The notes: generated by a model from the letters alone, not told the origin. Shown: positions 5,353-25,507, counted from the stretch's first letter. The stretch is DNA of 64,000 nucleotides from Paenibacillus guangzhouensis (GCF_009363075.1 NZ_CP045293.1:6369006-6433005), one strand, 5' to 3'. Numbers and translations: made by a program.

Positions 5353-5355
5353 CAT

Positions 5356-9700: not shown

Positions 9701-11881
9701 GACCAATATACAACTTCTAACGCCTTGGATGCTATTACTGTAACTCGGCGATCGAAACAATACCAAGTACTTATTCAGGAATTTTTGGCTTCAAAAGGCG
9801 TACCTATTCAGGAAGATGTAACAATAAATATTATTAATCTTTTCAACGCACTAAATGGTAATTGGTTATTGCGTTTGCTTGCCCAGAATAATCATTTTCC
9901 AAAAGAAAAAATTAGTATTCTCTCTGCTGCTAAATTGGCACTAGCATTCCTATGGACTTCTGACATCATATGGATTCCGATTTCTATGGAGGAAGTGCTT
10001 AGGATCTCTGGTGGAACTGGACTTAAGCAAGCAGAGGGGTTATTCTCGGCGAAGAATTTACGTCAACATGGCTCGTATAGTGATGACTTACTTTTCATTG
10101 GAATTGAAACGTGTGATGGTAGCAACATTAAAGTCCATTTATGTCCAGTTGAAGTGAAAATCGGAGTTAATAGTAATGTTCAGGCTAAGGCCATTTCGCA
10201 AGTAAAGGAAACTCATCGACTTCTTTATGAATTTTTGACAGGGGATGCCCCATCGGCCATGATCTATCGCAACTTTTTCATCCAGTTGGCGTTGGCCAAC
10301 CTGGAGAAATTAACTATTTATGATGTTTGGCCGGAACAAAATTTTAGAAATAAAGTTGATTATGTAATTAAGGAACGGCTTTTGAATGATGAGTATATCC
10401 TTTCTAATGAATTTAAAGAAGTCTTAGGAGAAGGTCTTGTTATTTCCTTCAAGCGTGATCTCATCTTTGCAGAAGCAAAAAAAATTGATGATGTAATGTA
10501 CATCAGCTACCCGGAGAAGACTGGGTACAATTTCGTTACTACAAGCGTTGAAAATTTGAAAGCTGCACTGCACAATGGCCAGTCCAGCATCGATAAAAAT
10601 TTGCTTTTATCAAATTGTCATAATAAATCGGATGCGACTACTGTTATTTCTTACGTACACGATAGTAACGAGAGTATAACACCTATTTCTGAGGCTAATG
10701 TACATTCTCCTGTAGCTGAAGCTTTACCTTCTGATGAAGATAAGCCGTTAGAAATTTTATTTGGAACGAATGTAGAAAATGGTGATAATGTCACCTGGTT
10801 TCCAACTTCTACAAATAAAGTCCTTCATACGAATACAGGTATAATTGGAACAATGGGGACGGGGAAGACACAATTCACGAAATCACTTGTAGCTCAACTT
10901 AAAAAGAACTCTGGTCAAAATCTATATAAAACACCAATTAAGGTTTTGATTTTTGATTACAAAGGAGACTATATAAAAGATGATTTTGTGAAGTCAACAG
11001 GAGCTAAAATTTACGATTTATTTCATTTGCCATATAATCCTTTGTCTTTGTTTGTTACCCAACCGATAAAACCTTTATTACCGGTTCATACCAGCAGTAC
11101 TTTAACTGATACTATTTGCACTGCATTTAACCTTGGTCCCGTTCAGACAATAACCTTAAAAGATTTAATTATGGATGCGTATGCAAATAAAGGGATTTTA
11201 AAAACTGACTCGTCCACTTGGAATAAACCCGCTCCAACATTCAATGATTTGTTTGAGTTGTTTTCACAGAAAGATGGATTAAAGATAGACAGTTTGTACG
11301 CAGCACTAAAGGAATTATACGATACAGAAGTGTTCGAGCCTGATTCAACAAAAACAATTCCATTATTTGATTTAATTGAGGGAATAACTGTAATTAATTT
11401 GTCTGGCTACAACGATAGTATTCAGAATTTGGTTGTCGCAATTACTTTGGACAACTTCTACAATCAGATGCAGATGTCCGGGCATAGTAGGATACAAGGC
11501 AACATAAGAGAAATTACAAGAATGATATTGGTAGATGAAGCTGACAACTTCTTAAGTAAGGATTTTAAGGCAATTAAGAAAATCCTGAAGGAAGGCAGAG
11601 AATTTGGAGTAGGTACAATTCTTTCGACCCAATTTTTAAGTCATTTCTCAACGAACGATAACGATTATGCAAACTATATCTTAACTTGGGTCCTCCATAA
11701 TGTTTCGGAATTGAGTAGTAAAGAGATAAGAATGTTATTTAATACTCAGTCCAAGACCGAAGAAGAAAATATTATGAGTCAGATTAAAAAGTTAGAAAAG
11801 CATCATAGTGTGGTTAAGGGGATTGGCAAGGAACCGATACTGATGAGAGATAAAGCTTTTTGGGAGTTATTTAATTATTAA
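6728..11881 (+). CDS. dptH: Phosphorothioate-dependent restriction protein DptH/DndH, a large protein with a C-terminal FtsK/HerA-like ATPase
   Basis: Roughly 1720 aa. Near the C-terminus, Walker A IGTMGTGKTQFTKS and Walker B ILVDEADNF. Overlaps the dptG 3' end; start uncertain between 6695, 6719 and 6728. Confidence 0.8.
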   Translation: MSNPFYDYLARKVDEYFSSTFLLPGDKYHIYFDRDEHVSVLLTHLNALSNSETFHVKDESGHIVYETFCLKYYGSNLVVGSTVNATPDYLTKLRNSVGTESNDMQETSFLLIHNSNLDSLVHGTDSFYKEGMPFHIKVVEKDIKQLLATTSLNTTEKRILEFIVSNKKVMRSQYEETTLFDFIDVLAVLNRSEISNSEYMSFGLFKDNDMVLPTLTDKDFKERLKLNHELFTKVDSVYKNGNIDTELEKYFDDEGVDLLSNPNWAETEFNPVYISNRNKQNDKGLEYVEGKKKTQDGLNFWERPAGESKSKQRTRSFLIFNPEKKQEINLELNFNDKVFNKHAKLETKVIGVTTDTYGSKLKVKIKVNEVESKFFRITYKTETSNKFDFRFAVVEVNESFLAGIQTSYTVVPTKEPYLLISSEETELIVNPSENDVETNMITLDGRSVPQVKVTTGQKVIIKKSLDSDNEEEAIRFNILFNDTLIPFAVEDIVERPAPITAFTVWKQKMLRQEHFYYKIENEKMKIIYGNRETFAQGEFKKSLEREYELIHSDGLYFHEGVIGLLNKEIEVPDSIRSSYSNLITYFKTKKLLPSLAYMDEEYKSLVEVYISSFIDELEQLENGQLTQKSRNIGLVGTIDRTIGEKEWLFSPLHPMNLVFQIVLNKLIAGQELQDELLKTLRGTFLIPHVRFGNDKLYKVTDQSDSYEWNTYVDNDLPRYEGNRSFVNKLVYEKIEEFIEHFKYLFDTDERSPLKVNVVNMGDCREITQGLLEFYKRQLKKKISKEKLVPININIYSETPETNVFEEISELSKVEDIEERLDLKLSVDDYLAEEVINIFHDKVTFFSKDAANDKYEYSHVTFYQMKKIEQIADSKMVDIPTGLSLFGLSSGVPSAFVNGNYLTGFGSKSLPDSNNLIHRLAPRMNALLRVARNLNSYQDDSAVVTAISSEGKHILNKIYDSTHWVTFVEPRVDLSFFKNDTRNNDLLVIHYNDQYTTSNALDAITVTRRSKQYQVLIQEFLASKGVPIQEDVTINIINLFNALNGNWLLRLLAQNNHFPKEKISILSAAKLALAFLWTSDIIWIPISMEEVLRISGGTGLKQAEGLFSAKNLRQHGSYSDDLLFIGIETCDGSNIKVHLCPVEVKIGVNSNVQAKAISQVKETHRLLYEFLTGDAPSAMIYRNFFIQLALANLEKLTIYDVWPEQNFRNKVDYVIKERLLNDEYILSNEFKEVLGEGLVISFKRDLIFAEAKKIDDVMYISYPEKTGYNFVTTSVENLKAALHNGQSSIDKNLLLSNCHNKSDATTVISYVHDSNESITPISEANVHSPVAEALPSDEDKPLEILFGTNVENGDNVTWFPTSTNKVLHTNTGIIGTMGTGKTQFTKSLVAQLKKNSGQNLYKTPIKVLIFDYKGDYIKDDFVKSTGAKIYDLFHLPYNPLSLFVTQPIKPLLPVHTSSTLTDTICTAFNLGPVQTITLKDLIMDAYANKGILKTDSSTWNKPAPTFNDLFELFSQKDGLKIDSLYAALKELYDTEVFEPDSTKTIPLFDLIEGITVINLSGYNDSIQNLVVAITLDNFYNQMQMSGHSRIQGNIREITRMILVDEADNFLSKDFKAIKKILKEGREFGVGTILSTQFLSHFSTNDNDYANYILTWVLHNVSELSSKEIRMLFNTQSKTEEENIMSQIKKLEKHHSVVKGIGKEPILMRDKAFWELFNY

Positions 11882-11889
11882 TTTATTCA

Positions 11890-11920
11890 GGATGCCCTTT
11901 TTGGGCATCTTTTCTTTATT
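11890..11920 (+). terminator. Rho-independent terminator after dptH
   Basis: Hairpin gatgccc-ttttt-gggcatc followed by a T-rich tract. Confidence 0.6.
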
Positions 11921-12002
11921 GACCGCTAATGTTTAATTATGTACAATAGGATATAGAGACTTCCAAAATAGAATTACAAACTTCCAAATTCGGAGGGAAA
12001 AA

Positions 12003-13094
12003 ATGCAACAGCATCTTCCAATGTTCTATACATTTCCATCCATTCGTGGTATACAGGCAGGGCGGGAATATTACATAACCATGTGCCCGTTAAAACTAAT
12101 ACCAAGAATCTTCCTTTTTGACGAAGAGGATATTGATCCCACCGTAAGATCTCAGAGGGTTTTAAATAAAGCACGAGTACCTGAGATTGCTGAATATCTT
12201 ATTAATAATTGTAAGGATTACGTTTTTTCGGCCATTACCGCTTCAATTGATGGACTGGTAGATTTTGTACCTTTATCAGATGATCCTGTCAACTACAATA
12301 TTGGTATTATTAAAGTTCCTATGACATCAAAAATTGTAATTAATGACGGGCAGCATAGACGTGCAGCAATTGAGGCAGCCTTAAAAAAGAAGCCAGAACT
12401 TGGGGATGAAACGATCTCTGTTGTTTTCTTTCTAGACGAGGGCTTGAGAAGATCACAGCAAATGTTCGCAGATCTTAATCGCTATGCTATTCGACCCTCT
12501 GGCTCCCTAAATATCTTATACGATTACAGAGATCCAGTAGCTGAAATCGCTAGACAACTATCGTATGAACTAGATTTATTTGATGGACTGACTGAAATGG
12601 AAAAGACAACCATATCGAATAGATCAACAAAGCTATTTACGTTAAGTGGGTTGTATCGTGCTACCAATGAACTGATTAATAATAAGATTGACAAACCTTA
12701 TGAAGAGCTAAAAGAAATATCCTTCAAATATTGGGCAGTAGTCGGTAAACATATTAAGGAATGGAATAGTGTTAAGGAAGGCGTTGTAAAGGCTTCTGAA
12801 TTAAGAAAAGACTATATCAACGCTCATGCTATTACATTAGTAGCCTTGGGTAAGGTTGGTTATTGTTTATTAGATGAATTTCCTGATACCTGGGAAAAGG
12901 AACTGGAAAAGTTACAATTAGTTGAATGGTACCGTGGAAATAAGTATTGGGAAGGTCGCGTTACTGTTGGTGGGAAAATTTCCTTCTCGAGAAATAATCT
13001 CATTTTATTAACTAGTGCACTCAAAAAGGTACTAGGGATTCCGCTATCTACAGAAGAGCAAGAGGCGGAAAGATCTTTACAGTCAAGTAATTAG
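12003..13094 (+). CDS. dndB: DNA sulfur modification protein DndB (DGQHR domain)
   Basis: 363 aa with the diagnostic INDGQHRRAAIEAALKK motif. RBS GGAGGG precedes the ATG. Confidence 0.85.
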   Translation: MQQHLPMFYTFPSIRGIQAGREYYITMCPLKLIPRIFLFDEEDIDPTVRSQRVLNKARVPEIAEYLINNCKDYVFSAITASIDGLVDFVPLSDDPVNYNIGIIKVPMTSKIVINDGQHRRAAIEAALKKKPELGDETISVVFFLDEGLRRSQQMFADLNRYAIRPSGSLNILYDYRDPVAEIARQLSYELDLFDGLTEMEKTTISNRSTKLFTLSGLYRATNELINNKIDKPYEELKEISFKYWAVVGKHIKEWNSVKEGVVKASELRKDYINAHAITLVALGKVGYCLLDEFPDTWEKELEKLQLVEWYRGNKYWEGRVTVGGKISFSRNNLILLTSALKKVLGIPLSTEEQEAERSLQSSN

Positions 13095-13114
13095 TGTTTG
13101 ACGGAGGAGCTATA

Positions 13115-14614
13115 ATGAGCACAGCATTTAAAATAAATAAAGAATACCTACAGGAAATAAATGAACGAATTCAAGATTTGTATTTATCAGACCATATTCC
13201 TTGGATTGTGGGTTACAGTGGGGGCAAAGATTCCACGGCAACGTTGCAACTGGTTTGGAATGCCATAAAAACTTTACCAGAGGAAAAAAGAAATCACAAA
13301 GCTATACACGTCATAAGTACAGATACGCTTGTAGAACAACCAATTGTCGCGGCGTGGGTAAACAACTCTTTGAAAAAAATGAGAGAAACCGCTGTAGCAA
13401 TGGGTATGCCCGTTACTCCACATAGATTAACTCCAGATGTATCAAATTCTTTTTGGGTTAATTTAATAGGTCGGGGATATCCTGCGCCGCGGCCGACCTT
13501 TAGATGGTGTACAAGTCGTCTTAAGATTGATCCATCTAATAAATTTACAACGGACCTTGTTAAAGATTTTGGTGAAACAATTTTGGTTCTAGGAACGAGA
13601 AAAGCGGAAAGTACAAGACGGGCAGGAACCATGAATAAATACGAGAAGCATAGGATCAGAGAGTGGTTAAGTCCTAATGGCAGCTTGCAAAATTCGTGGG
13701 TATTTTCCCCAATTGAGGATTGGACGAGTGATGATGTGTGGTTGTACTTGATGCAGCATACAAATCCTTGGGGAATCTCCAACAAAGATTTGATGGCTAT
13801 GTATCGTGAGGCTACAAACGATAATGAGTGTCCATTAGTGGTAGATACTTCAACACCGAGCTGTGGGAATAGCAGGTTCGGTTGCTGGGTATGCACGTTG
13901 GTATCTTCGGATAAGTCGATGGAAGCCATGATTCAGAATGATGATGAGAAGGCTTGGATGGAGCCGCTTTTGAAGTTCCGTAATGAAGAAATTGGTATGC
14001 TAAATGAGAACGGGAGAATAGATGATCATGATAAGAGGGACTTCCGAAGAAAAGGGGGAGCGATTACTTTAAAAAGGAGCGGTACTGATGTAACTCCAGG
14101 TCCTTATCTTAAAAGTCATCGTGAACATTTACTTCGCCGGCTACTTGAAGTTCAAGAGGAAGTTCGTGAATTAATGCCGGAGGACATGGAAGGGCTAGAA
14201 CTTATCGCACTAGAGGAGATAAAAGAAATTCAAAGGATTTGGGTTCAGGATAAGGCGGAATTTGATGATGCTGTCCCGAAAATCTATCATGAAGTTACAG
14301 GAGCAATTTGGCCATTTAATGATAAATATAGCTCGTTTGGTCGAGAAGAGTGGAGTATTCTCGAGGAGATAACTGAAGGCAATCATGTCACTATGGATTT
14401 GTTCTCTTCACTGCTATATATGGAGGAGCAACATACCACTCTGAGGGGAAGAAAAGCTGTCCTCAGTGAGATCGAAAAACATATCAAAAGATGTTTTTAT
14501 GAGGATGCTCAAGATGCACTTGCGTTTAAGCAGAACCAAGTTGCACTTAGGGATAACGCTAATCCGGATGAGTTAGCCAGCCAACTTGAAATGGAGTCAG
14601 AAGATGATTATTAA
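13115..14614 (+). CDS. dndC: DNA phosphorothioation protein DndC (PAPS-reductase-like PP-loop ATP pyrophosphatase)
   Basis: PP-loop IVGYSGGKDSTATL. About 500 aa. The ATG at 13115 follows GGAGG; the ORF track begins at GTG 13094. Confidence 0.9.
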   Translation: MSTAFKINKEYLQEINERIQDLYLSDHIPWIVGYSGGKDSTATLQLVWNAIKTLPEEKRNHKAIHVISTDTLVEQPIVAAWVNNSLKKMRETAVAMGMPVTPHRLTPDVSNSFWVNLIGRGYPAPRPTFRWCTSRLKIDPSNKFTTDLVKDFGETILVLGTRKAESTRRAGTMNKYEKHRIREWLSPNGSLQNSWVFSPIEDWTSDDVWLYLMQHTNPWGISNKDLMAMYREATNDNECPLVVDTSTPSCGNSRFGCWVCTLVSSDKSMEAMIQNDDEKAWMEPLLKFRNEEIGMLNENGRIDDHDKRDFRRKGGAITLKRSGTDVTPGPYLKSHREHLLRRLLEVQEEVRELMPEDMEGLELIALEEIKEIQRIWVQDKAEFDDAVPKIYHEVTGAIWPFNDKYSSFGREEWSILEEITEGNHVTMDLFSSLLYMEEQHTTLRGRKAVLSEIEKHIKRCFYEDAQDALAFKQNQVALRDNANPDELASQLEMESEDDY

Positions 14615-16598
14615 ATCAATTAGTCTTTGCAACTTTGGTGTATACGCAGGGGTACAACAACTAAATCTAGCTCATGATGGGAAAGGGAAAGGCCAGGTCG
14701 TAACACTGGTTGGTGGACTGAATGGGCGAGGAAAGACCAGTATCCTTGAGGCTCTCCTGCTGGCCTTTTATGGAAATCGCTCTCCCAAAGTAAGGGAGAG
14801 TGGACGCAGTTATTCAAATTACTTGGCCGAATTAATTCATGGTCGTGGAGTTGAAGAACTGGAAAGTTGGGTGATACTTGAGCTAGAAGTTCCTCTGGAC
14901 AGCTCGGTAAGCAATATCAAACTAAAGCGTTCTTGGGGAAAAAAGAATGTACGGGTGACGGACTTCCTACAGGTATGGCGCGATGAACGAGAAGATCCAT
15001 ACCTAGCGGAGAATTGGGATAGCTACGTTGAAGAATTAATACCGTCCGCTATAGCAGAGCTATTCTTTTTTGATGGTGAACGGATAAGTACTCTGGCCGA
15101 ATCTGATGAAACAGTGGAATCATTGCGAAAAGCCATTCAAACGCTTCTAGGTATTGAGACTATTGATAGGCTTACAAAGGATTTGGAGCTTTTAATAAAA
15201 AGAAATAGAGCTGTTTCAGTAAATACTGAATTAAAAGATGAGTTACAGGAAATTAACGAGTACCTTCAGTCTATAGAGCTGAAATATAGTCATGTAAACC
15301 AGGAAAGAAGTAGTTTGAATTCGAAAATGCAATATATGACTCAGCAATTGGAGCTACTGAAAAAAGCATATGGTGAAGCTGGGGGAGGATACTTTGATAA
15401 TCAAGGTAAACTTCTTAAACGTCAAGGGGAGCTCCATATTGAATTAGATGAGCTAAAATTAAGTGTAGGCTCTGTTCTAGCGGGTGCTTTTCCTTTAATT
15501 CTTGTTGAAGACCAGGTTAGGAAGGTTAAACAAACTGCTAAACGCGATTTGGTAAACAATCAAGCCAAGGCATCTTTATCTTTCATTAAGAATATCTCTT
15601 CAGATATTATGTCGAGCATCAATATTCTAGAGATTGACAGTATCGAGAAAGATAAAGTACAACAGCTGATCTTATCGAAGATAGCCGGAGTGGAACAATC
15701 AGCAAAAGAGGATCCTCTATTTCCGGTCGGGCTTACGATGTCGAATCAACTGGATAATATATTGGGCCTTTTAAGCTTAGAAAAAACAAATGCCCGGGAA
15801 TTGATTAGTAGATATGAAGAGATTGATCACGAACTTTATCAAATAGAAAAGAATATGCCATCCGATCCGGATGTCGATGCTCTCAAGGATTTGCTAGAAA
15901 AGCAGAAAGAAACAGAGATGACCATAGGTGAGTACTCCAGGGCCATCTCTCAATATGACGAAGAGTTGAGATTGTTAAAAATTGAGGAGCAAAGGGCCAA
16001 GGAAAAGATCGTGAAGATGAGTACTTTGAAGGCCGAAGCAGACGAGACAGAGCGCATGATCAAATATGCCCTTCAGACTCAGCTGAAAATGAAAGTTTTT
16101 CGGGATCGATTAACAGAGCAGAAAGTAAATAAATTAGCGGAGTTTATTTATGAGGCGTTCAAATTATTAACCCATAAGAGCAGCTTGGTCTCGCAGGTAA
16201 CTGTAGACGCAGAGAATTTCAAAATAAAGCTTTATGATATAAGTGGTGCAGAAATTTCTAAGTTTAAACTGTCTAGCGGTGAGAGGCAAATGTTGGCTCT
16301 TGCGATTCTATGGGGGCTAGCAAAAGCATCTGGTAAAACATTGCCTGTTGTCATAGATACACCAATGGGGCGGCTGGATTCACTCCATCGGATTAACTTC
16401 GTAGGGAAGTACCTTCCTAATGCAAGCCATCAAGTTGTTGTGCTTTCCACGGATACTGAAATTGAAGGAAAGTACCTAAAGATGCTTTCGCCATATGTCG
16501 GCAAGAAGTATTTATTGATATACGATGAAACAAACCGGGCTACCGAGATCACCGAAGGATACTTGCTACCTGAAAATGAGATGGAGACACTTGTATGA
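14604..16598 (+). CDS. dndD: DNA phosphorothioation protein DndD (SMC-like ABC ATPase)
   Basis: N-terminal ISLCNFGVY...LVGGLNGRGKTSILEAL Walker A, long coiled-coil middle region, and C-terminal ABC signature-like LSSGERQMLALAIL with Walker B VVIDTPMGRLD. The ATG at 14604 follows GGAG. Confidence 0.85.
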   Translation: MIIKSISLCNFGVYAGVQQLNLAHDGKGKGQVVTLVGGLNGRGKTSILEALLLAFYGNRSPKVRESGRSYSNYLAELIHGRGVEELESWVILELEVPLDSSVSNIKLKRSWGKKNVRVTDFLQVWRDEREDPYLAENWDSYVEELIPSAIAELFFFDGERISTLAESDETVESLRKAIQTLLGIETIDRLTKDLELLIKRNRAVSVNTELKDELQEINEYLQSIELKYSHVNQERSSLNSKMQYMTQQLELLKKAYGEAGGGYFDNQGKLLKRQGELHIELDELKLSVGSVLAGAFPLILVEDQVRKVKQTAKRDLVNNQAKASLSFIKNISSDIMSSINILEIDSIEKDKVQQLILSKIAGVEQSAKEDPLFPVGLTMSNQLDNILGLLSLEKTNARELISRYEEIDHELYQIEKNMPSDPDVDALKDLLEKQKETEMTIGEYSRAISQYDEELRLLKIEEQRAKEKIVKMSTLKAEADETERMIKYALQTQLKMKVFRDRLTEQKVNKLAEFIYEAFKLLTHKSSLVSQVTVDAENFKIKLYDISGAEISKFKLSSGERQMLALAILWGLAKASGKTLPVVIDTPMGRLDSLHRINFVGKYLPNASHQVVVLSTDTEIEGKYLKMLSPYVGKKYLLIYDETNRATEITEGYLLPENEMETLV

Positions 16599-16981
16599 TT
16601 GTGAAACAAATTCGGCTTTCGAACAAAGCAAAAGAGCAGTTAATTCGACTAAAGGCGAAAACAGGTATCCAACAATGGAATATCTTATGCCGTTGGGCGC
16701 TCTGTCTATCAATAAAAGAACCAAACCCACCGATGGACATTGATTACCCAGCGGATAGCAACGTCGAAATGACTTGGCAGGTTTTTGGTGGAGAACATCA
16801 AGATATTTATGAGGCTCTAATTATTCAACGTTGTTTGGATGATGGTTTGGGAACTGATCCGAATGTGCTTGCAAAACAGTTTAGGTTACACTTACACAGA
16901 GGGATCGGACGACTCGCTGCACACGGTTCTAGGCTTAAAAAATCTACGGATCTATTAAAGGTAGGTTTAGGAAAATTCTAG
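16595..16981 (+). CDS. dndE: DNA phosphorothioation protein DndE
   Basis: 128-aa ORF whose ATG overlaps the dndD stop (ATGA). Size and position are typical of DndE. Confidence 0.7.
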   Translation: MIVKQIRLSNKAKEQLIRLKAKTGIQQWNILCRWALCLSIKEPNPPMDIDYPADSNVEMTWQVFGGEHQDIYEALIIQRCLDDGLGTDPNVLAKQFRLHLHRGIGRLAAHGSRLKKSTDLLKVGLGKF

Positions 16982-16993
16982 GAAAGAAGAGAT

Positions 16994-18121
16994 TTGATGA
17001 TGCCACTTTACCTTGACTTTAATGCAACAAGCCCTGTTCATGATGAAGTGTTAGAAGTGATGGTTGAAGCTTACAAGAATAATTTCGGAAACCCCGCCAG
17101 TAGGACGCATCATCACGGGCATCAAGCAAAACAACTAGTGGATAATTCACGCAAAAATATCGCTGCGGTTCTTGGGGTGGTCCCCAATGATATTATTTTT
17201 ACTAGTGGCGCTACTGAGAGCAATAATCTGTCCATTCTTGGGCTTGAGGAATTCGGTGTAAAACAAAATAAAAAGCACATTATATCTACAGTTATAGAGC
17301 ACAGTTCAATTTTGGAACCACTAGAGCATCTATCCAAAAAGGGCTTTAAGATTGACCTTGTTCCAGTGGATTCATCAGGAAGGGTTTCAGCTGAGGATAT
17401 TATAAACCGTGTTACAGACGATACCTTACTAGTTACTATTATGCATGCTAATAATGAAACTGGGATTATCCAACCCGTGAAAGAAATTGGCGATGCCCTG
17501 GTTGACCGTGACGTATTTTTTCATATTGATGCAGCTCAGACCTTTGGAAAGCTTGTTGATGAATTGCAAGAAGTAAAATACGATCTTTTAAGTATAACAG
17601 CTCATAAGATATATGGACCCCAGGGAATTGGTGCGCTTGTTTTTCGGAATAAAAAATATAAGCGTCCACCAATTACTCCATTGATGTATGGTGGGAAACA
17701 AGAAAAAGGACTAAGGCCGGGTACCTTGCCTGCTCCGTTAATTGCAGGGTTTGGTAAAGCAGCAGAGTTGATATTATCTAATTATTTAAATTGGGCCAAG
17801 GCTGAATTGATTATTAGACAAAGTATTATAGAACAGCTTAAAGAAGTAGAATATACTATAAACGGTGACATTTCCTTATGCTTACCGAATTGCATTAATA
17901 TCAGCTTCCCTGGAGTAGACTCGGAGGCGTTAATGTTATGTGTTAGACAAAAATTATCGTTATCAAATGGATCAGCATGCACCTCATCTGAATATAAACC
18001 AAGCCATGTTTTATCCTCAATGGGAGCACTAGCTGAAAACAGTGTAAGGATATCTTGGGGACCTTACTTAGAAAATGTTGATTTATCAGAAATGATACTT
18101 TTTATAAAAAAAATTATTTAG
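16994..18121 (+). CDS. dndA: Cysteine desulfurase of the NifS/IscS family, serving as DndA
   Basis: 375 aa with class V aminotransferase motifs (FTSGATESNNL and SITAHKIYGPQGIGAL, the PLP-lysine region). Directly downstream of dndE. Confidence 0.85.
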   Translation: MMMPLYLDFNATSPVHDEVLEVMVEAYKNNFGNPASRTHHHGHQAKQLVDNSRKNIAAVLGVVPNDIIFTSGATESNNLSILGLEEFGVKQNKKHIISTVIEHSSILEPLEHLSKKGFKIDLVPVDSSGRVSAEDIINRVTDDTLLVTIMHANNETGIIQPVKEIGDALVDRDVFFHIDAAQTFGKLVDELQEVKYDLLSITAHKIYGPQGIGALVFRNKKYKRPPITPLMYGGKQEKGLRPGTLPAPLIAGFGKAAELILSNYLNWAKAELIIRQSIIEQLKEVEYTINGDISLCLPNCINISFPGVDSEALMLCVRQKLSLSNGSACTSSEYKPSHVLSSMGALAENSVRISWGPYLENVDLSEMILFIKKII

Positions 18122-18124
18122 ATT

Positions 18125-18160
18125 AAAAAGAAGCTGTGACTTACATAACAGCTTCTTTTA
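18125..18160. terminator. Bidirectional Rho-independent terminator shared by dndA (+) and the convergent Toprim gene (-)
   Basis: Perfect inverted repeat aaaagaagctgt ... acagcttctttt. Confidence 0.65.
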
Positions 18161-18974
18161 CTAATGTTGAGAATAACTTTTCAAAATAACAAATAAGTTC
18201 AATAATCTTCGGATCTTGTTGAATTTTTTGATCAGAAATATAATCAGTGTCACTTATTATTACCTTGTTAGTTTTTCCTGGCTTTTTTAATTGTCCAGCA
18301 ATCCCTATGCTCATCTTTTGAGTATCGGACGAATGTTTTTTAGGTATGTATGAACTGTTTTTTTGTAAAAACGTCTCTATATCTGTGAATAGTGGCTCAT
18401 GATCTTTAATCATAAGGGGAAGTACAACATCTTCAAGTTTCCCCATCCCATCTCCTTTTTCAAAAATGTAACAACCCAAGAATAACTCTTTATTATTTTT
18501 CTCCTCATTACAGATAATATCTAAATTAGATATTTCTTTAATTAATGGGAGGGTTTTGCTATACTCTTCTTTAAAAATATTTACTACAGATTCAATTCCT
18601 TTGTCGTCTGCATCATTAGTAAAAACAAAGGAGATATTTGTGATTTCAGTATCAGTTGCTGGTACTTCTAGAATATCAAGGTACTTGCCTATTAAGTCCC
18701 GTACTCTATCGTGCTTAGTATTTCCTCCAACACTGTATAATAACACAATTATTTTATCCTTATAGAGTATATCCATAGGCAGTAGCGGGTAGTAATTTTG
18801 TAAATTTAATTGGTTTAAATCATGTTTTTCTATTGCGTTCTTGAAAATTGCATTTAGTGGATAAGGTGCTTTGCCTATTTTTTCTCCATAATTTCGAAAA
18901 TTCATAGTTCGTAAAACCCTGTATATAAAAGCGACGTCGTGGGGACCTTCACATAGAATTAATACTACTTTCAT
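18141..18974 (-). CDS. Toprim-domain protein, OLD/RloB/AbiLii/DUF4276-like; predicted nuclease partner of the upstream ATPase
   Basis: 277 aa. N-terminal MKVVLILCEGPHDVAFI fits the Toprim hhhhEG..D glutamate motif. FVFTNDADDKG supplies a DxD motif. Start overlaps the ATPase stop by 4 nt. Confidence 0.6.
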   Translation of the reverse strand: MKVVLILCEGPHDVAFIYRVLRTMNFRNYGEKIGKAPYPLNAIFKNAIEKHDLNQLNLQNYYPLLPMDILYKDKIIVLLYSVGGNTKHDRVRDLIGKYLDILEVPATDTEITNISFVFTNDADDKGIESVVNIFKEEYSKTLPLIKEISNLDIICNEEKNNKELFLGCYIFEKGDGMGKLEDVVLPLMIKDHEPLFTDIETFLQKNSSYIPKKHSSDTQKMSIGIAGQLKKPGKTNKVIISDTDYISDQKIQQDPKIIELICYFEKLFSTLVKEAVM

Positions 18975-21007
18975 AAGCCACCTCTAAGATCCAAGTCAAG
19001 ATTCTCAATCAGCCTTGCCAAACTAGGGCCAGAATAGTAATTTGAAGTTATTTGGCTGTTCTCATAGTTAAATCTATAAGCAGATATGAATGAATTAGTC
19101 AAACAGTTGTTAACCAAAGCATTAATGCATTCTTTGCTATGAGAGGTAACAAAAATCTGCACATTAAATATTTCAGCAAGCTCACCGATGAATTTAGAGA
19201 ATTCGACCAATAGGGAGTGGTGTAATGCATTCTCTAATTCATCAATGAATATTACTCCATTCTCAACTGCGGCAAATTGAAGAGATATGTGGAATATCCT
19301 CTGGAAACCTTCTCCAAAATTTGTGATATCCACTGCTGATTTGAAATTTTTATGGTTTACAAGGAAACGCTTCATCTCCCCTGCTAATTCTATATTTTCT
19401 ATTCCGCTGTCTAATCGTGAATTAATAAACTTAACTATACGTTCGATATTTCGAGTTTCTACACTTTTTTCATGTAATCTGATTAGTTCTTCCTGATTTT
19501 GCATTGAAAAGGGAGTTGTGTAGGTTGAGAAACATAATTGATGTATTTTATCATAGAAGATTTCATTTTCTTTCTCGATAAAAAGTCTTGATTGCGTAGT
19601 GAATGTTCTATCCTCTACGGTTGCTATTAAATTCAAAGAAGTGATATACGAGTTTTTATTTAGATTATTAATACTTTCTTCTTCTTTAACTAATTTTGTT
19701 GATATAGATTTACCTTCGAAGTTACCAGATATATTAATTTCATCAGGAATAACGGAAGAAAGCCATGAAAAATCTAACTCATCATGAAATTTTCCTCTTC
19801 TTCTAAATACATCATAGTAACCGAAAATATCATTTAATCGCGTAAGAAAGTAAAGGGCTTCTAAAAAACTAGACTTACCCGTATTATTGATTCCAGCAAT
19901 AATATTGATCTTATTCAAATTTTCTACTCTAAAGTTCCTGAAGAGTTTATAGTTTTCAATGTTTACAGAACAGAAATGATTTGTTACTTTTTCAATAAGT
20001 GTATTCTTTAACACTACAGTATTTTTACTAAAATCGTTGCCTGTTTGAGGAGATATACTAATTGCTTCAAGTAACTCTTGCTTATCTTTATAGTTTAAAG
20101 CTTTATCAACTGATTTAGTATTTTCCATATACAGAAGAGTTCTTTCGTCATCCAAAATTGAGCGAAGATTTCTTATATCGGTGTAGTTTTTGATTATACG
20201 TTCACCGGGAGAGTTATCACCGTTAGTGTTATCGTCTAAATCTTCTTCATCAATTGATAACCAATTAAACAATCGATTAAGGTTCTTACTATTACTTGCT
20301 TTTAAGTTTTCCTCATCCCATTCAATCCATGCTCTAAGATTCGGGCTTTTGATAATTTCTTCAAAAATTGTGTACATATCTGGTTTAAATTGCTCCCCGA
20401 ATTCGCAGATTCGGAACTGATCTATTAAACCTAAAGTTCTTAGTGCACGTTTAATAGTTCCTGATTTAATCCCTAGAGTATCTGCAACGTCCTTCTCATT
20501 TAGTTTTTTCTCATGAATTAAATAATGGAGATATTTTGCCTGATTCCAAGCAGGCCAGCTTTTTGTACCGCTTATATGTTTTAGGCCCATAATAATTTGA
20601 TAATTTTCAAGACTTTTTTCTGAATAGACCACGACTGGGATTGTAGAAAAAATGCTAGGATCTAGCCCTCCAATATCTAAACCAAGTTTATAACGTTCGT
20701 ATAAAACTTTTAATGTAGAGACACGACGATTACCTTCGATTACTTCATATTTGTCTTCTGATAAATTAGTTACCTGGATTAAATCTACAGGCAAATACCC
20801 ATTTTTTGTAAAACTCAGAAGCAAATCATCTATGTTTTCATTTTTGTTCCCTGTAACAAGAATTCTTGTTCTAGTTTGTAAAACAGGGTCAGTTATATCT
20901 TCAATTTTTTGTCCAAATTCAATCTCATGAACTAAGCGGAAATTTTTGGGATCTAGATATAGATTATCAATGTGGACTTCTTTGTGCTCATAAGCTTTAT
21001 CCATCAT
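18971..21007 (-). CDS. Fusion protein: N-terminal ParB/Srx-like domain, an HTH, and a C-terminal ABC-type ATPase (AAA_15/AAA_21, as in AbiLi, AriA and the OLD N-terminal half)
   Basis: 678 aa. ParB-like motifs LYLDPKNFRL and YEVIEGNRRVSTL. HTH-like IKSGTIKRALRTLGL. Walker A IIAGINNTGKSSFLEAL, Walker B VIFIDELENALH, H-loop IFVTSHS. Confidence 0.7.
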   Translation of the reverse strand: MMDKAYEHKEVHIDNLYLDPKNFRLVHEIEFGQKIEDITDPVLQTRTRILVTGNKNENIDDLLLSFTKNGYLPVDLIQVTNLSEDKYEVIEGNRRVSTLKVLYERYKLGLDIGGLDPSIFSTIPVVVYSEKSLENYQIIMGLKHISGTKSWPAWNQAKYLHYLIHEKKLNEKDVADTLGIKSGTIKRALRTLGLIDQFRICEFGEQFKPDMYTIFEEIIKSPNLRAWIEWDEENLKASNSKNLNRLFNWLSIDEEDLDDNTNGDNSPGERIIKNYTDIRNLRSILDDERTLLYMENTKSVDKALNYKDKQELLEAISISPQTGNDFSKNTVVLKNTLIEKVTNHFCSVNIENYKLFRNFRVENLNKINIIAGINNTGKSSFLEALYFLTRLNDIFGYYDVFRRRGKFHDELDFSWLSSVIPDEINISGNFEGKSISTKLVKEEESINNLNKNSYITSLNLIATVEDRTFTTQSRLFIEKENEIFYDKIHQLCFSTYTTPFSMQNQEELIRLHEKSVETRNIERIVKFINSRLDSGIENIELAGEMKRFLVNHKNFKSAVDITNFGEGFQRIFHISLQFAAVENGVIFIDELENALHHSLLVEFSKFIGELAEIFNVQIFVTSHSKECINALVNNCLTNSFISAYRFNYENSQITSNYYSGPSLARLIENLDLDLRGGL

Positions 21008-21652
21008 TAGGGTGCAACCCTCCTTTGTGATATTAATATAATAGTAGCATTTTCCATTCGGTTATGAAATGGATATATTCAATTATAGCCTTATATGATT
21101 AGAAATAACCCATAAAAACCAATATGTTTTATTGTTAGAATATAGGCTGAATATCTAGGAATCTTAAAGCCTTTACTTACTATAAAGCCTAATTATGTTA
21201 TTTTGTTGATGAATTATGTCAACAAACAATAAATCAATTTTGTTACGATGCATGTAGAAGGGTTAACTTATAGAATCTAAGCGATTCAATTCAATAAAAT
21301 ATTTACAATAACTCCATCGATCATTCAATTCACACCATTGTTAGTTTCAGGAAAATACTTTATCAACATAAACCAAAAGTATATATGAGAATTAATTTTA
21401 GAATAAGTGTCCTATTCATTATTTCAGAGCTACGTATACGAAAATCTCGTAATATTTTCACCCTGTTCCTCCACATATAAATAAGCGAAAATACGATCAG
21501 TGGCCAAGAACATCGAGGCACATGGGATGGGTTACTTCGCCTATTAAGTGTACCTATCCCAACTTATTCCTCAATGATCTTTCCACAGGAAGTTGCGGGG
21601 GCCGTTAAGGTCATCCGCATGATCCCAAATTATAGTGTAGGAGTAGATTGAG

Positions 21653-22822
21653 ATGGCGATCGTCCAAGTGAGATCCACGAATCCGCAGTTCTCGTATTTA
21701 ATTAAGAAAAATCCGAATTCCGGCATGATGCTTCGCTCGATCCGCAGAGGTATGACGTACGGATGGTACACCGATGACCAGACCTATAACGTTTATTTTA
21801 AAGACGCAGACAATGAAATTTCCTATAAACAGCATGAGCAGGAGAATTTCGAATATCTAAATGTATCGAGGTACAACACGCCGTTATTTCCTCTTAATGC
21901 TATTAATGAATTCTTCTCCGCGCCGCTTAAGGCACAAGACGAACGAGATGTAGAGGGTTATGAGCATACCTTCTTTATTAATATGATACATATCGAACTG
22001 ATCCGGTATATTGAGTTTTTCGAGAAACATTTGAAAGATTTCTCTTTCGAAATCACCCACCAGGCCCATAAGAGCTATTCGCTCACCGTTACGACGAAGG
22101 AGAGCCTGTATCAGCTGCTGCATGCGGTCAGTGTATTATGCTTATTCCTGTCCATGTTCGGCAACGAGTACATCGATATCTCGGACAGCATTCTAGATAA
22201 GTACATCAAGAGCATGAATGTGATTGATGCACCATTCTATATTCGTAGCCTGTTCGTACGGAACTTCTTGTCTTCAAGAGATCGGTTTCATAAATACAAG
22301 GCAGAGCTTGAGAAAACGGAGCGATATGACATTCAGTTCGCCTACGGAGGTACGGCACTGCAGCGAAGAAATTATATCGGAAGCGCACTGGCTTTTGACA
22401 AATCGATCTTGGATGTAGGGTGTGGAGAGGGATTCTATGCGCTCCCTTTTGCGGGGAAAATAGAAGGCAGCTACTATGCGGTGGATATCCATGAGGAGTC
22501 TCTGGAGAAGGTAAGGCGTAAAGCTGAGGCCAGGGAGATCGATAACATCGTCATATTCGGCTCGATCGATCAGTTCCTGGAAAGCTATAACGGAGAGCAA
22601 GTCGACGTGATTCTTACGGAGGTTATTGAACATATGAGCCAGAATGAGGCCAAACTGCTGATCCATCAAATCTCCGCGCATGTCGATTTTGACAGATTTA
22701 TTATCACGACGCCTAACGCCGATTTTAATATCTACTATGAGCTGAACGATTTCCGTCATGACGACCATAAGTGGGAAATGGGCGAGGAATCATTCCAGCA
22801 GTGGATGCGCGATGTGATTTAG
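21653..22822 (+). CDS. hen1: Hen1-like RNA 3'-terminal 2'-O-methyltransferase (class I SAM-dependent MTase with an N-terminal Hen1-type domain)
   Basis: 389 aa. SAM motif I ILDVGCGEGFYAL. Hen1-type metal motif VILTEVIEHM. Immediately upstream of pnkp. Confidence 0.65.
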   Translation: MAIVQVRSTNPQFSYLIKKNPNSGMMLRSIRRGMTYGWYTDDQTYNVYFKDADNEISYKQHEQENFEYLNVSRYNTPLFPLNAINEFFSAPLKAQDERDVEGYEHTFFINMIHIELIRYIEFFEKHLKDFSFEITHQAHKSYSLTVTTKESLYQLLHAVSVLCLFLSMFGNEYIDISDSILDKYIKSMNVIDAPFYIRSLFVRNFLSSRDRFHKYKAELEKTERYDIQFAYGGTALQRRNYIGSALAFDKSILDVGCGEGFYALPFAGKIEGSYYAVDIHEESLEKVRRKAEAREIDNIVIFGSIDQFLESYNGEQVDVILTEVIEHMSQNEAKLLIHQISAHVDFDRFIITTPNADFNIYYELNDFRHDDHKWEMGEESFQQWMRDVI

Positions 22823-22921
22823 GATACGAATCTGCATGCTGAATTTGTAGCCGTTGGCGATGGCGTCAACAATATCAAGACGACGCAGGGCGTCATACTT
22901 AAGAGAAGGGGGGCCTGAACC

Positions 22922-25507
22922 ATGGATATTCAAACGAAAATTCATACGATTTTCATGCTGATCGGGTCTACCGAATGCGGCAAAACGACGTTCGCCAAGG
23001 AAGTACTAATTCCCGGGTTGCGTTTTGAGGATGCCAGCCGGAATGTTAGGGGCAACGTTCAATATTTATCCTCAGACCAGATCCGCCAGGAGGTTCTTGG
23101 CTATGAATACGATAAGTATGACCAAGTGATGCTCGAGGCTAGCGAACAAGCTTTTCACCTGTTGTTTGAACGGTTGAAGATGGCAACGTCTTTTCCGATC
23201 AATGCAGAGTTTGTGGTCGTTGATACAACTGGGTTGTCGGAGGATTTCCGCGCAAAGGTGAAGGAAGTTGCGTTTCAGAACAATTACAACCTTGAGGTCA
23301 TTGTCTTCGATTATCGCAAACGGGAAGATTATTATGCCTCGGAGCGTTCGAAGAAATTGATTACGAATCACATTAACCGTCTGAAAAAAGAAGTTCTCGG
23401 TTCGTTATCTCGCGAAGGATACGGCAAGATTCATAAAGTGCGCGCCAAGGATTTTTATCTGCCCGAAGAAGGAAGAGCGAACCCAGAATACAACATTGTC
23501 ATCGAGGATTTGGATTCTTATTTATCGACTGTTCTGCCACAGGATCAGCAATATATCATCATTGGGGATGTCCACGAATGTGTGGATGATCTGAAAGGGC
23601 TGCTCCTCGACCACGGGTACAAGATGGATGCAGGCAAGCTGGTTGTAACAGATAAGCTGAAGCATACCAAGCTCATTCTCGTTGGGGACTGGATTGATAA
23701 AGGCAAACAGACGCAGGACATCGTTCAGTTTTTATATGATAACCAGGAGCACTTCTACTTCGTGCTAGGGAATCACGAGAACTTCGTCGACAAGTATATC
23801 AAAGGTGAAATAAAAGGCGTCGATCAAGAGTTGCTCCATACGTATTTTGATTCAACGCAAGTGTTATTGAACGATTCGGTGCTACTGGATAAATTCCAGC
23901 ACCTCGTGTCGATTTCCAAACCGTTCTATCGGTATGTAGGCGTCAACGGTTCGTCCTTCTATGTCACACATGCCCCGTGCCGGAATAAATACATCGGGAA
24001 GCTGGATACGAATTCTATTCGACATCAGCGGAACTTCCGAATCGATCGGGAGGCGCCATTGGAGGGTCAACTTGCATTTCTGCAGGAGGAAGCGGTCAGA
24101 AATCATCCGTATCACGTGTTCGGTCACGTTGCAGCCAAGCAGTCTTTCCAAATCGGCAACAAGCTTCACATCGACACGGGAAGCGTGCATGGTAACCTAT
24201 TAACTTCCGTCAGTATCTCGTATAAGCCGTTTATGAAGTCCCACAAATCCCACCAAGCGGTGATTACTGAGGAATTGCAGACTTTATTCAAGCAAGAGCG
24301 AAAGGTATCCATGCAAGACCTTGCAGAGGACGATATCCGCAGACTCCATTATTGCTCGCGACACAAAATCAATTTCATCTCAGGTACCATGTCCCCAGCG
24401 GATAAGGACGACGAGACGAATGAGTTGGAATCCTTAAAGTGTGGACTCGAATATTTCAAAGAACGCGATGTCCAGCAGGTTGTTCTGCAGCCGAAATATA
24501 TGGGTTCGAGATGCAATATTTATTTGCATAGAGATCCGGAGCAATGCTTCGCTGTCAGTCGCAACGGTTACAAAATCAATCATGTGGATTTATCGGAGAT
24601 CTACGGTGAGCTGCTGCAAAAGTTCGGTAGCTATATGGAAGAGCAGAAGATTGCCATGATGATTCTAGATGGAGAGCTTCTTCCGTGGATGGCGCTTGGC
24701 GAAGGACTGATCGAAAGACAGTTTAAGCCTATTGAAAAATCGCTGGAGACTGAGCTAACATTCCTACAGCAAAACGGTTTTGAGGAAGCCTTTCTTAAGC
24801 TTATGACTGAGTACGAGGCGAGTGGTTTTGAACAAGATCAACATCATACAGCCAAGTCTGTGTTAAGTGATAAGTACGGCTCAAGCGTATACCAAAACTA
24901 TAAGTACGCCCATGATATTCGGGGAACGTATGTCCCATTATCCGAGCACATGAAGGCTTATCAAACGTATAGAAGACAGTTGGAGCTATATGCGCAAGAC
25001 GAGGCTATGAAGTATAAACCGTTTGCCGTGTTGAAAATCGTATATGATGACGGGCAGGAAGAAGTTCCAGAATGGAAGACCAGCGAGATGTATGCTTTTC
25101 TCTCGGAAGATGAAGCGATCACATTGGATCTATCCGAGCCGGACGGCTTGGAGCGAGCTGAACGTTACTTCTCGAAGCTTACGACGGAGAACCATATGGA
25201 AGGGATCGTAATCAAACCGGAGATAAGGAACGGAAAAACGGTACCGTATATGAAAGTGCGTAATCCCGATTATTTGTCCATCATTTACGGATATGACTAC
25301 AAGTTCCCGCATAAATACCGTAAGCTGCTTAAACAAAAGAATGTCAATCCAAAGCTTCGTACTTCACTCAAGGAGTACCAATTGGGGATGCAAATGCTAG
25401 CGGTACCATTTGATGCAATTACGCCTGAGCATGAGGCTTATAAAGAGATCGCTGCTAATCTACTGTTCGAGGTTGCACAGGAGCGGGAGATCGATCCGCG
25501 TCTATAA
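22922..25507 (+). CDS. pnkp: Bacterial polynucleotide kinase-phosphatase (Pnkp): P-loop kinase, calcineurin-like phosphoesterase and adenylyltransferase/ligase domains
   Basis: 861 aa. Kinase P-loop GSTECGKTTF. Phosphoesterase motifs GDVHEC, GDWIDKG and GNHEN. Ligase motif I-like KYMGSR. Confidence 0.85.
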   Translation: MDIQTKIHTIFMLIGSTECGKTTFAKEVLIPGLRFEDASRNVRGNVQYLSSDQIRQEVLGYEYDKYDQVMLEASEQAFHLLFERLKMATSFPINAEFVVVDTTGLSEDFRAKVKEVAFQNNYNLEVIVFDYRKREDYYASERSKKLITNHINRLKKEVLGSLSREGYGKIHKVRAKDFYLPEEGRANPEYNIVIEDLDSYLSTVLPQDQQYIIIGDVHECVDDLKGLLLDHGYKMDAGKLVVTDKLKHTKLILVGDWIDKGKQTQDIVQFLYDNQEHFYFVLGNHENFVDKYIKGEIKGVDQELLHTYFDSTQVLLNDSVLLDKFQHLVSISKPFYRYVGVNGSSFYVTHAPCRNKYIGKLDTNSIRHQRNFRIDREAPLEGQLAFLQEEAVRNHPYHVFGHVAAKQSFQIGNKLHIDTGSVHGNLLTSVSISYKPFMKSHKSHQAVITEELQTLFKQERKVSMQDLAEDDIRRLHYCSRHKINFISGTMSPADKDDETNELESLKCGLEYFKERDVQQVVLQPKYMGSRCNIYLHRDPEQCFAVSRNGYKINHVDLSEIYGELLQKFGSYMEEQKIAMMILDGELLPWMALGEGLIERQFKPIEKSLETELTFLQQNGFEEAFLKLMTEYEASGFEQDQHHTAKSVLSDKYGSSVYQNYKYAHDIRGTYVPLSEHMKAYQTYRRQLELYAQDEAMKYKPFAVLKIVYDDGQEEVPEWKTSEMYAFLSEDEAITLDLSEPDGLERAERYFSKLTTENHMEGIVIKPEIRNGKTVPYMKVRNPDYLSIIYGYDYKFPHKYRKLLKQKNVNPKLRTSLKEYQLGMQMLAVPFDAITPEHEAYKEIAANLLFEVAQEREIDPRL

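Follow-up and report, generated by a model that had tools for sequence, protein, structure and literature searches.

A gene pair for an ATPase with a ParB-like module and a candidate Toprim nuclease beside the Dnd locus of Paenibacillus guangzhouensis belongs to the candidate defence family PDC-M38

Next to a complete Dnd locus, a 64,000-nucleotide stretch of DNA from Paenibacillus guangzhouensis (GCF_009363075.1, NZ_CP045293.1:6369006-6433005; the whole of this stretch is referred to as the window) carries two overlapping genes, here called A and B. The protein A combines a predicted ParB-like domain and a helix-turn-helix (HTH) with an ATP-binding cassette (ABC) ATPase, whereas B is a candidate Toprim nuclease. 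The locus raises the question whether this pair is a defence system not described so far, as the original prediction from the sequence had proposed, and whether it is functionally connected to the neighbouring Dnd genes.

Both open reading frames (ORFs) were found exactly at the predicted positions, including the 4-nt overlap of stop and start codon (Table 1). This overlap implies translational coupling of A and B, and the same or a near-abutting arrangement recurs in related loci. The motifs named in the prediction were all detected. Those of A are LDPKNFR (residues 18-24), EGNRR (91-95), GINNTGKSS (372-380), VIFIDELE (585-592) and TSHS (621-624), those of B CEGPHD (8-13) and NDADDKG (120-126). 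Chance does not account for them, and selection on them is strong: they are invariant or almost so in alignments of 45 full-length A homologues (35-47% identical, with one exception at 82%) and 38 B homologues (30-41% identical). Residue 1 corresponds to the first ATG of the respective ORF, at 21007 for A and at 18974 for B; the AlphaFold models and both alignments begin one residue later, and residue numbers printed for the models equal the ORF number minus 1.

Membership of the pair in PDC-M38

Protein A matched the PADLOC model PDC-M38A (PDLC04607, 715 positions) with an E-value of 6.2e-224 over residues 6-309 and 333-676 of 678. The N-terminal 335 residues alone still reached 5e-110 with this model (residues 6-309, model positions 7-313), the ATPase falling on model positions 372-715. 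Protein B matched PDC-M38B (PDLC04615, E 1.2e-61) with residues 2-267 on model positions 4-291 of 293. The two genes, co-directional and with a 4-nt overlap, agree with PDC-M38 in order, strand and adjacency. The profile hidden Markov model (HMM) PDLC04607 thus covers the N-terminus of A as well as its ATPase, a nearly full-length match that speaks against a new architecture. To call the pair undescribed was an overstatement, since the architecture is catalogued as PDC-M38; the other part of the claim holds, as PDC-M38 is still an uncharacterised, computational candidate. Judged by sequence, the pair is an ordinary PDC-M38 member with nothing structural that sets it apart, and by mechanism class it belongs to the OLD-ABC-plus-Toprim systems.

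The PDC set comprises 145 single- and multi-gene candidates obtained by 'guilt-by-embedding', their nomination being based on copies that lie within operons of BREX, DISARM or type I restriction-modification (RM) systems (Payne et al., bioRxiv 10.1101/2024.01.29.577857). PDC-M38 could be traced only to a supplementary table, where it appears as an assigned cassette; in a literature text search, neither 'PDC-M38' nor 'DUF3226', the Pfam family of B, occurred in the paper text.

In the ATPase head of A we detected a Walker A motif (G372-INNTG-K378), a signature-like motif (G565-E-G567-F-Q569-R570), Walker B (D589-E590) and an H-loop (H623). Invariant in the homologues are N374, N375, G377 and K378; G565, G567, Q569 and R570; D589-E590; and H623-S624. 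The predicted assignment to the AAA_15/AAA_21 kind of ABC ATPases was confirmed by Pfam (AAA_21 E 2.2e-19, AAA_15 E 7e-15) and by the PADLOC model AbiLi (PDLC02336, E 1.7e-36). The latter matched residues 347-669 with model positions 4-335 of 340, i.e. the C-terminal domain only. Further PADLOC matches of the ATPase were AriA (E 4e-21) and NsnB (E 6e-19), followed by PtuA and GajA, and in Foldseek it matched the heads of PtuA, Rad50, SMC and GajA at E-values of about 1e-10.

Protein B is a member of Pfam DUF3226 (33 bits, cut-off 27). Residues C8-E9-G10, H12-D13, D121, D123, G126, G178, L180, E181, K220, N236 and D244 are invariant in its homologues. The AlphaFold model of B is confident, with a pLDDT value (predicted local distance difference test) of 87.7 and a predicted template modelling score of 0.88. 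Its best fold match, scored 15.8 at 16% identity, is PH0156 (PDB 2p62), the founder structure of DUF3226 and an archaeal structural-genomics protein without assigned function. Further matches are the C-terminal region of a class 2 OLD nuclease (9.0) and a class 1 OLD nuclease (7.6), and weaker ones are retron Ec67 (7.5), GajA (7.1) and a small Toprim protein (6.7). The kinship is visible at fold level only: the sequence of B gave no meaningful match among PDB chains, and for no relative could a solved structure be detected by sequence. Together with these fold matches, the invariant E9...D13, D121xD123, E181 and K220 support B as a predicted OLD-like two-metal Toprim nuclease. This part of the original prediction stood up, whereas the proposed likeness to RloB/AbiLii did not. 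PADLOC returned only PDC-M38B models at E<=1 and Pfam only DUF3226, so that B was rejected as RloB/AbiLii as well as AriB/DUF4435.

Table 1. Features of the A-B pair in the window, and related loci (L numbers) in which the N-terminal module of A stands alone
Feature	Position	Strand	Remarks
Gene A, 678 aa	18971..21007	-	ORF; ParB-like N-domain, ParB-type HTH/helical domain, linker, OLD/AbiLi-type ABC ATPase
ParB/Srx-superfamily N-domain (predicted), A residues ~1-131	20615..21007	-	profile, fold and conservation evidence
Helical domain with ParB-type HTH (~156-198), A residues ~132-257	20237..20614	-	Pfam, collinear alignment, helices of the AlphaFold model, conservation
Linker region, A residues ~258-333	20009..20236	-	acidic low-confidence linker, three helices, second disordered linker
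ABC ATPase head, A residues 334-678	18974..20008	-	OLD/AbiLi/AAA_15-AAA_21 type
Gene B, 277 aa	18141..18974	-	ORF; DUF3226, candidate for an OLD-like Toprim nuclease (PDC-M38B)
ATGA stop/start overlap of A and B, 4 nt	18971..18974	-	sequence GGCTTATGAAAG
AT-rich intergenic region, 645 bp	21008..21652	.	between A and divergent hen1
N-module plus Mrr_cat	L039:9914-11947, L040:9959-11790, L046:9965-12000, L057:9983-11906
N-module plus Mrr_cat, 11 further loci	L042, L043, L045, L047-L049, L052-L054, L056, L061

The N-terminal module as a possible sensor

The N-terminal extension of the ATPase is longer than the predicted 230 or so residues; HMM coverage and the AlphaFold model of A (pLDDT 86.1) both give about 333. 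In the model, disordered linkers are found near residues 258-266 and 316-330 (model residues 257-265 and 315-329 have pLDDT values below 50); helices at 274-316 lie between them, and this linker region is still within the PDC-M38A model, covered to model position 313. Because the linkers join well-folded domains, the N-terminal 333 residues would represent a tethered module and not an insert of the ATPase.

Several independent tests connect this module to ParB. The NCBIfam model parB_part (TIGR00180) matched residues 53-97 (E 1.9e-5), the PADLOC models for the N-terminus of PD-Lambda-5_A matched residues 8-104 (E 8.7e-11), and Pfam ParB_N was found at E<0.01 in 9 of the 45 A homologues. HTH_ParB of Pfam gave a weak match on residues 156-197 (E 0.09). 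A profile of the N-module alone retrieved only three sequences from the PDB, namely the ParB protein 6t1f, the ParB-like nuclease 6ryk and Noc 7ng0, all collinear over the GxxRR segment and the HTH. Since Foldseek, run on the PDB with the complete model of A, returned chiefly ABC ATPase heads, a viral structure library was used to expose ParB matches. It returned a dozen ParB, Spo0J and ParB-Srx proteins at E-values of 6e-7 to 3e-4, and as these proteins have no ATPase, the matches must fall on the N-module. The ParB character of the N-domain is thus remote but consistent over independent tests at sequence and model level, and the predicted combination of ParB-like N-domain and HTH is upheld.

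Invariant in the N-domain of the homologues are L18-D19-P20, N22 and R24 as well as E91-G92-N93-R94-R95, and in the helical domain H144, G147, W151 and N155. In the A model, EGNRR follows a predicted hairpin (strands 76-82 and 85-90) and leads into a helix (92-106); we take it to be the phosphate-binding helix cap 'GxxRR' of ParB. The invariant LDPxNxR further upstream corresponds to (N/D)PxxxR of the ParB/Srx superfamily. At the position of ParB box III, A has the segment G-L-K-H-I-S-G, with H144, G147 and W151 invariant (G-x-K/R-H144-x-x-G147...W151 as a motif); this equivalence is our assumption from the collinear alignment and from the known motifs of ParB. By its sequence, the pocket is conserved, yet it does not appear to be a canonical CTPase site.

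The N-module was also detected without the ATPase. At 15 loci it forms a stand-alone protein of 357-409 aa that covers positions of about 3-360 of PDC-M38A (E about 1e-50). Its gene is directly followed by that of a 244-361-aa partner in all 15 cases, and 14 of the 15 partners fall into one cluster. Four of five partners scanned were Mrr_cat PD-(D/E)XK nucleases (best E 2e-14). The hosts are Alphaproteobacteria, Bacteroidota, Verrucomicrobiota, Actinomycetota, Omnitrophota and, in one case, an Aenigmatarchaeota metagenome-assembled genome (MAG). PADLOC did not recognise the N-module plus Mrr_cat pair as a system; possibly, the two proteins constitute a type IV-like restriction module. The three motifs of the N-module are invariant in fused and stand-alone forms alike.

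Conversely, the ATPase occurs with other N-termini. The PDC-M38-type ATPase at L030:9296-11949 carries an LRR N-terminus (LRR_4 E 1.6e-34) and that at L032:8621-11913 a STAND/AAA_16/ATPase_2-like NTPase, in both cases followed by a DUF3226 gene. Two short-form pairs (L041, L080) have no N-terminal domain. The stand-alone N-module with Mrr-type nucleases and the alternative N-termini on the ATPase-DUF3226 core are the new observations of this study. Being swappable on the ATPase and able to partner another nuclease, the N-module shows the behaviour of a domain for sensing or targeting, and both observations argue that the ParB-like module is an exchangeable part which senses DNA on behalf of a nuclease effector.

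In Pseudomonas citronellolis (L082:9558-9866, L083:552-860), a 102-aa Mrr_cat fragment is located directly upstream of the PDC-M38A homologue, which recalls the pairing of N-module and Mrr_cat. An exchange between this system and PDC-M38 may have left the fragment behind.

A different role for the N-module would follow if the pair were a toxin-antitoxin (TA) or abortive module of the PARIS type, with A sequestering a toxic B until a phage protein, e.g. an anti-restriction protein, sets B free, and with the N-module acting as an autorepressor or chromosome anchor. PARIS itself works in this way, AriB cleaving tRNA (reviewed in PMC13064643 and PMC12839542). The ATPase is akin to AriA and AbiLi, and the short forms without N-module indicate that the core can function alone; furthermore, HTH components of TA-like modules are commonly autoregulatory. 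However, the LRR and STAND-like domains that occupy the N-terminus elsewhere are ligand or protein sensors and not repressors, the N-module pairs by itself with Mrr-type nucleases, and its invariant putative nucleotide-binding motifs would not be needed in a plain repressor. We therefore regard this explanation as possible but unlikely.

Distribution of the pair and its relation to Dnd

Protein A is 100% identical to an 'AAA family ATPase' of Paenibacillus guangzhouensis. At least 400 homologues were found, the best 120 of which are 678-908 aa long (nearly all 700-745 aa) with 94-100% query coverage and belong to Firmicutes, Bacteroidota, Proteobacteria, Acidobacteriota, Cyanobacteria, Campylobacterota and Spirochaetes. 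Among species-representative genomes, 448 relatives were detected. An exhaustive profile search of 1.84 billion representatives gave 345 clusters at E<=1e-30 in two length classes, of about 680-745 and about 355-390 aa.

We examined 80 related loci within 10 kb, and 31 genome loci with a long-form A. In 30 of these 31, a B homologue abuts or overlaps A downstream. The exception is L020, which lacks the DUF3226 gene and has one for a HEPN_Swt1-DUF499 protein directly behind the ATPase gene. Beyond B, no conserved third gene was found, as no family occurred in more than 3 of the 103 proteins next to the pair. The flanking families are mixed and include BREX PglX/BrxC, HmaC, HsdR, DNA methylases of RM systems, HEPN, Mrr, AIPR, NERD and McrBC-like proteins, TA pairs and integrases. 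In Priestia, the pair is located in an RM/Mrr/AIPR island, in Paenibacillus sp. yr247 together with genes for Vsr, a C5 DNA methylase, NERD, DUF2357/PDDEXK_7 (McrBC-like) and DUF3323/DUF2399 proteins, and in Pseudomonas in a TA-rich island downstream of rpoD. In Mucilaginibacter, the pair alone is inserted cleanly among housekeeping genes. With the AbiC/AbiP-like and Dnd genes of the window and the defence genes around homologues elsewhere, the predicted defence-island context was found, and the fused architecture does recur among defence-rich, variable neighbours. The pair is an autonomous two-gene accessory module that moves horizontally and has a defence-type neighbourhood.

Directly downstream of the pair or, in L020, of the ATPase gene, three MAGs of Gammaproteobacteria encode a protein of about 1200-1300 aa (L020:12291-15959, L021:13223-16849, L022:13223-17116). 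It contains HEPN_Swt1 and DUF499, the domain scan having been made explicitly for L020 only.

With a role in DNA maintenance instead of immunity, ParB, an SMC/Rad50-like ATPase and Toprim would act together for a mobile element, be it in segregation, repair or plasmid restriction, in the manner of Wadjet or RecF/RecN. ParB is known to load SMC complexes, JetD of Wadjet is a Toprim protein, and the ATPase head is similar to Rad50, SMC and RecF. Yet the model of A has no long coiled-coil insert, and at family level OLD-type defence ATPases (AbiLi, AriA, NsnB, PtuA, GajA) matched best. Furthermore, there is no conserved ParA, parS or kleisin-like partner, the distribution is patchy and accessory with defence contexts, and the pair is virtually absent from mobile elements (one partial match in 72,556 plasmids, none in 50,697 phage records). 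A maintenance function is hence highly improbable.

In the window, the pair is convergent on dndA, as predicted, with 19 nt between its stop codon and that of dndA at 18121; no terminator between dndA and B was found in the promoter/terminator scan. The predicted AT-rich island is evident, too. The pair has 31-33% GC compared to 45-50% beyond 22 kb, and it is the lowest-GC stretch of the low-GC island, which ends near 21.6 kb. The repeat search around the locus gave nothing beyond short chance-level repeats, and no tRNA gene that could mark an integration site was found within the 64-kb window. A GGAGG ribosome binding site is located 8-12 nt 5' of the ATG of A. The promoter of A-B presumably lies in the intergenic region upstream (Table 1). 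An own promoter at 21.0-21.6 kb, as originally predicted, cannot be shown, since 18 sigma-70-like sites were found compared to 19.1 expected from shuffled sequences. The best of these sites upstream of A is TTGACA-16-TAACAT (21222..21195, minus strand).

The position next to dndA, in the same low-GC island, suggests an accessory function for Dnd. In that case, the ParB-like module would read the phosphorothioate status of DNA, like DndB and the ParB/DUF262 domains of the SspE type, and aim the Toprim nuclease at unmodified DNA, complementing DndFGH or serving as its backup. ParB-superfamily domains sense phosphorothioate or other modifications in SspE and GmrSD (PMC12065111), and the recruitment of extra nucleases to Dnd neighbourhoods has been described (PMC10853773). 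However, when the DndA-H proteins of the window were compared by phmmer to all ORFs of the 80 related loci, no DndB-H homologue was found within 10 kb in any of them, and the sole DndA-like match was an IscS-type gene. No Dnd genes are located near the closest homologues on long contigs, which are those of Priestia and Paenibacillus sp. yr247. In addition, the opposite strand and the lower GC content of the pair (dnd genes 34-43%) suggest a separate acquisition. The N-module is not DUF262/DndB-like, and no NsnA, SspE or DndB model matched it. The functional link to Dnd that had been considered is thus not supported and a Dnd accessory role is very unlikely; the adjacency is defence-island clustering and not functional partnership.

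Several further genes in the window were characterised. The Dnd locus (3538-18121, plus strand) is complete with the order dndF-dndG-dndH-dndB-dndC-dndD-dndE-dndA. Its cysteine desulfurase matched the SspA model (E 1.4e-126) slightly better than DndA (E 2.7e-122), and its DndD scored equally on PbeC models. The island begins on its left side with an AbiC/AbiP-like protein (5-973, plus strand; Pfam putAbiC E 2.6e-21, PADLOC AbiP E 2.6e-8), followed by a 425-aa ORF (1285-2562, plus strand) with no Pfam or PADLOC match. Divergent from A, an RNA-repair pair of Hen1 (Hen1_N and methyltransferase, E 2e-109) and Pnkp (kinase-phosphatase-ligase) is encoded at 21653-25507 on the plus strand. GC rises over this pair, being 36% at 21-22 kb and about 45-46% beyond 22 kb, which is host-like and not island-like. 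Hen1/Pnkp would be an attractive partner of A-B if B cut tRNA, but it was rejected as a conserved one, there being no match within 10 kb in the 80 related loci. A QatD/TatD-like protein (27805-28590, E 1.4e-18) adjoins two WYL-domain proteins, whose overlapping ORFs on the minus strand (28685-29545 and 29490-30812) may represent a frameshifted or duplicated regulator. The island thus stacks at least three independent defence layers, namely the AbiC/AbiP-like protein, Dnd modification with DndFGH, and PDC-M38, and is not one extended Dnd system.

Proposed mode of action and comparison with known systems

Sequence and structural models establish which domains and folds make up the pair and that its ATPase and Toprim motifs are intact. 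Comparative genomics establishes that A and B are coupled in translation, are inherited together and do not require a third gene. The A-B module probably serves in anti-phage defence. We favour, with some reservation, the interpretation that this PDC-M38 member is an autonomous mobile cassette of ATPase and nuclease of the OLD-ABC/Toprim class which senses via its ParB-like module. Protein A would oligomerise through its ABC heads, like GajA, AriA and PtuA, and keep B inactive. The ParB-like/HTH module would bind DNA, possibly gated by a nucleoside triphosphate (NTP) at the invariant DPxNxR/EGNRR pocket, and might report a DNA feature specific for the invader. A changed ATPase cycle could then release or activate B. 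B in turn would cut DNA, or tRNA as AriB does in PARIS, with the result that the phage is stopped or the infection aborted. The sensor role of the N-module would parallel the logic proposed for Menshen, in which a ParB-DUF262 sensor and an OLD-ABC transducer act with a nuclease effector, including Toprim variants (PMC12065111).

A number of points weigh against this interpretation. The PDCs are called 'untested' by their authors, and HEC-01, a related candidate consisting of ATPase and Toprim, showed no defence in the assays of the same study (bioRxiv 10.1101/2024.01.29.577857). With the near-absence of the pair from plasmids and phages, transport by mobile elements, which is common for defence cassettes and typical of them, was not seen directly. 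The ParB assignment depends on remote homology: A itself stays below the gathering score of Pfam ParB_N (15 compared to 26.3 bits), and the PDB profile matches of the N-module are weak (E about 0.1). As ENxxR of box III is replaced by G-x-K-H-x-x-G in A, CTPase chemistry should not be taken for granted, and the HTH might just as well act in autoregulation. Finally, the trigger, the substrate of B (DNA or RNA) and the interaction of A with B are all inferred.

A more far-reaching version would make the ParB-like module a true NTP-gated DNA clamp or switch, an immune sensor which loads on invading DNA or reads one of its features. It would license the DUF3226 Toprim nuclease via the fused OLD-type ABC ATPase and, independently, Mrr-type nucleases in a second two-gene system, and would define a 'ParB-sensor' superclass of restriction-like defences apart from the DUF262 lineage of GmrSD, SspE and Menshen. 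We consider this improbable.

Compared to known systems, the closest kin of the pair are AbiL for the ATPase, OLD and GajA for the nuclease fold, and Menshen for the logic. As in AbiL/RloAB, a gene for an OLD-type ABC ATPase is followed by a separate Toprim gene, and the ATPase of A matches AbiLi in full length. AbiLi, however, lacks the 333-aa ParB-like/HTH module, and B belongs to DUF3226 and not to RloB/AbiLii. The pair resembles PARIS in that the OLD-like Toprim effector has a gene of its own and would be controlled by an ABC ATPase, the proposed logic of sequestration and release being the same. The match to AriA ranks below those to AbiLi and PDC-M38A, B has no homology to AriB/DUF4435, A carries the ParB-like module, and the trigger is presumably DNA instead of a protein of the Ocr type.

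ParB-superfamily DNA sensor, OLD-ABC ATPase and nuclease are also the three functions combined in Menshen. Its NsnC proteins include Toprim members (DUF4276 or RloB), and the sensor domains are polymorphic in both systems; the match of A to NsnB covers the ATPase only. In contrast to the three genes of Menshen (NsnA, NsnB, NsnC), there are two here, with sensor and ATPase in one polypeptide. The ParB domain of A is of the canonical or 'ParB-like nuclease' type (EGNRR), whereas NsnA has DUF262 (DGxQR) and ParBDB, and no NsnA match was obtained for A. The pair also lacks the DUF3696 tail and the inPIN domain.

In OLD and GajA, ATPase and Toprim are fused, whereas they are separate proteins here, and GajA needs the helicase GajB, while no helicase is conserved with the pair. 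PD-lambda-5 A with its ParB-methyltransferase architecture and fusions of the GmrSD/SspE type likewise place a ParB-like N-domain on a DNA-acting defence enzyme. Their fusion partner, however, is a methyltransferase or an HNH nuclease and not an ABC ATPase, and the homology extends over about 100 residues.

The pair is a compact candidate for experimental validation. The hypothesis of sensor swapping is testable by domain swaps, using the N-module that is found with Mrr-type nucleases and the LRR and STAND-like substitutes found on the ATPase. If validated, PDC-M38 would be a widespread two-gene defence in which DNA sensing, transduction by the ATPase and killing by Toprim are accommodated in two proteins. 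It would provide a minimal model for the gating of Toprim effectors by ABC ATPases in AbiL, PARIS, Gabija and Menshen, and it would give a function to Pfam DUF3226 and PH0156.

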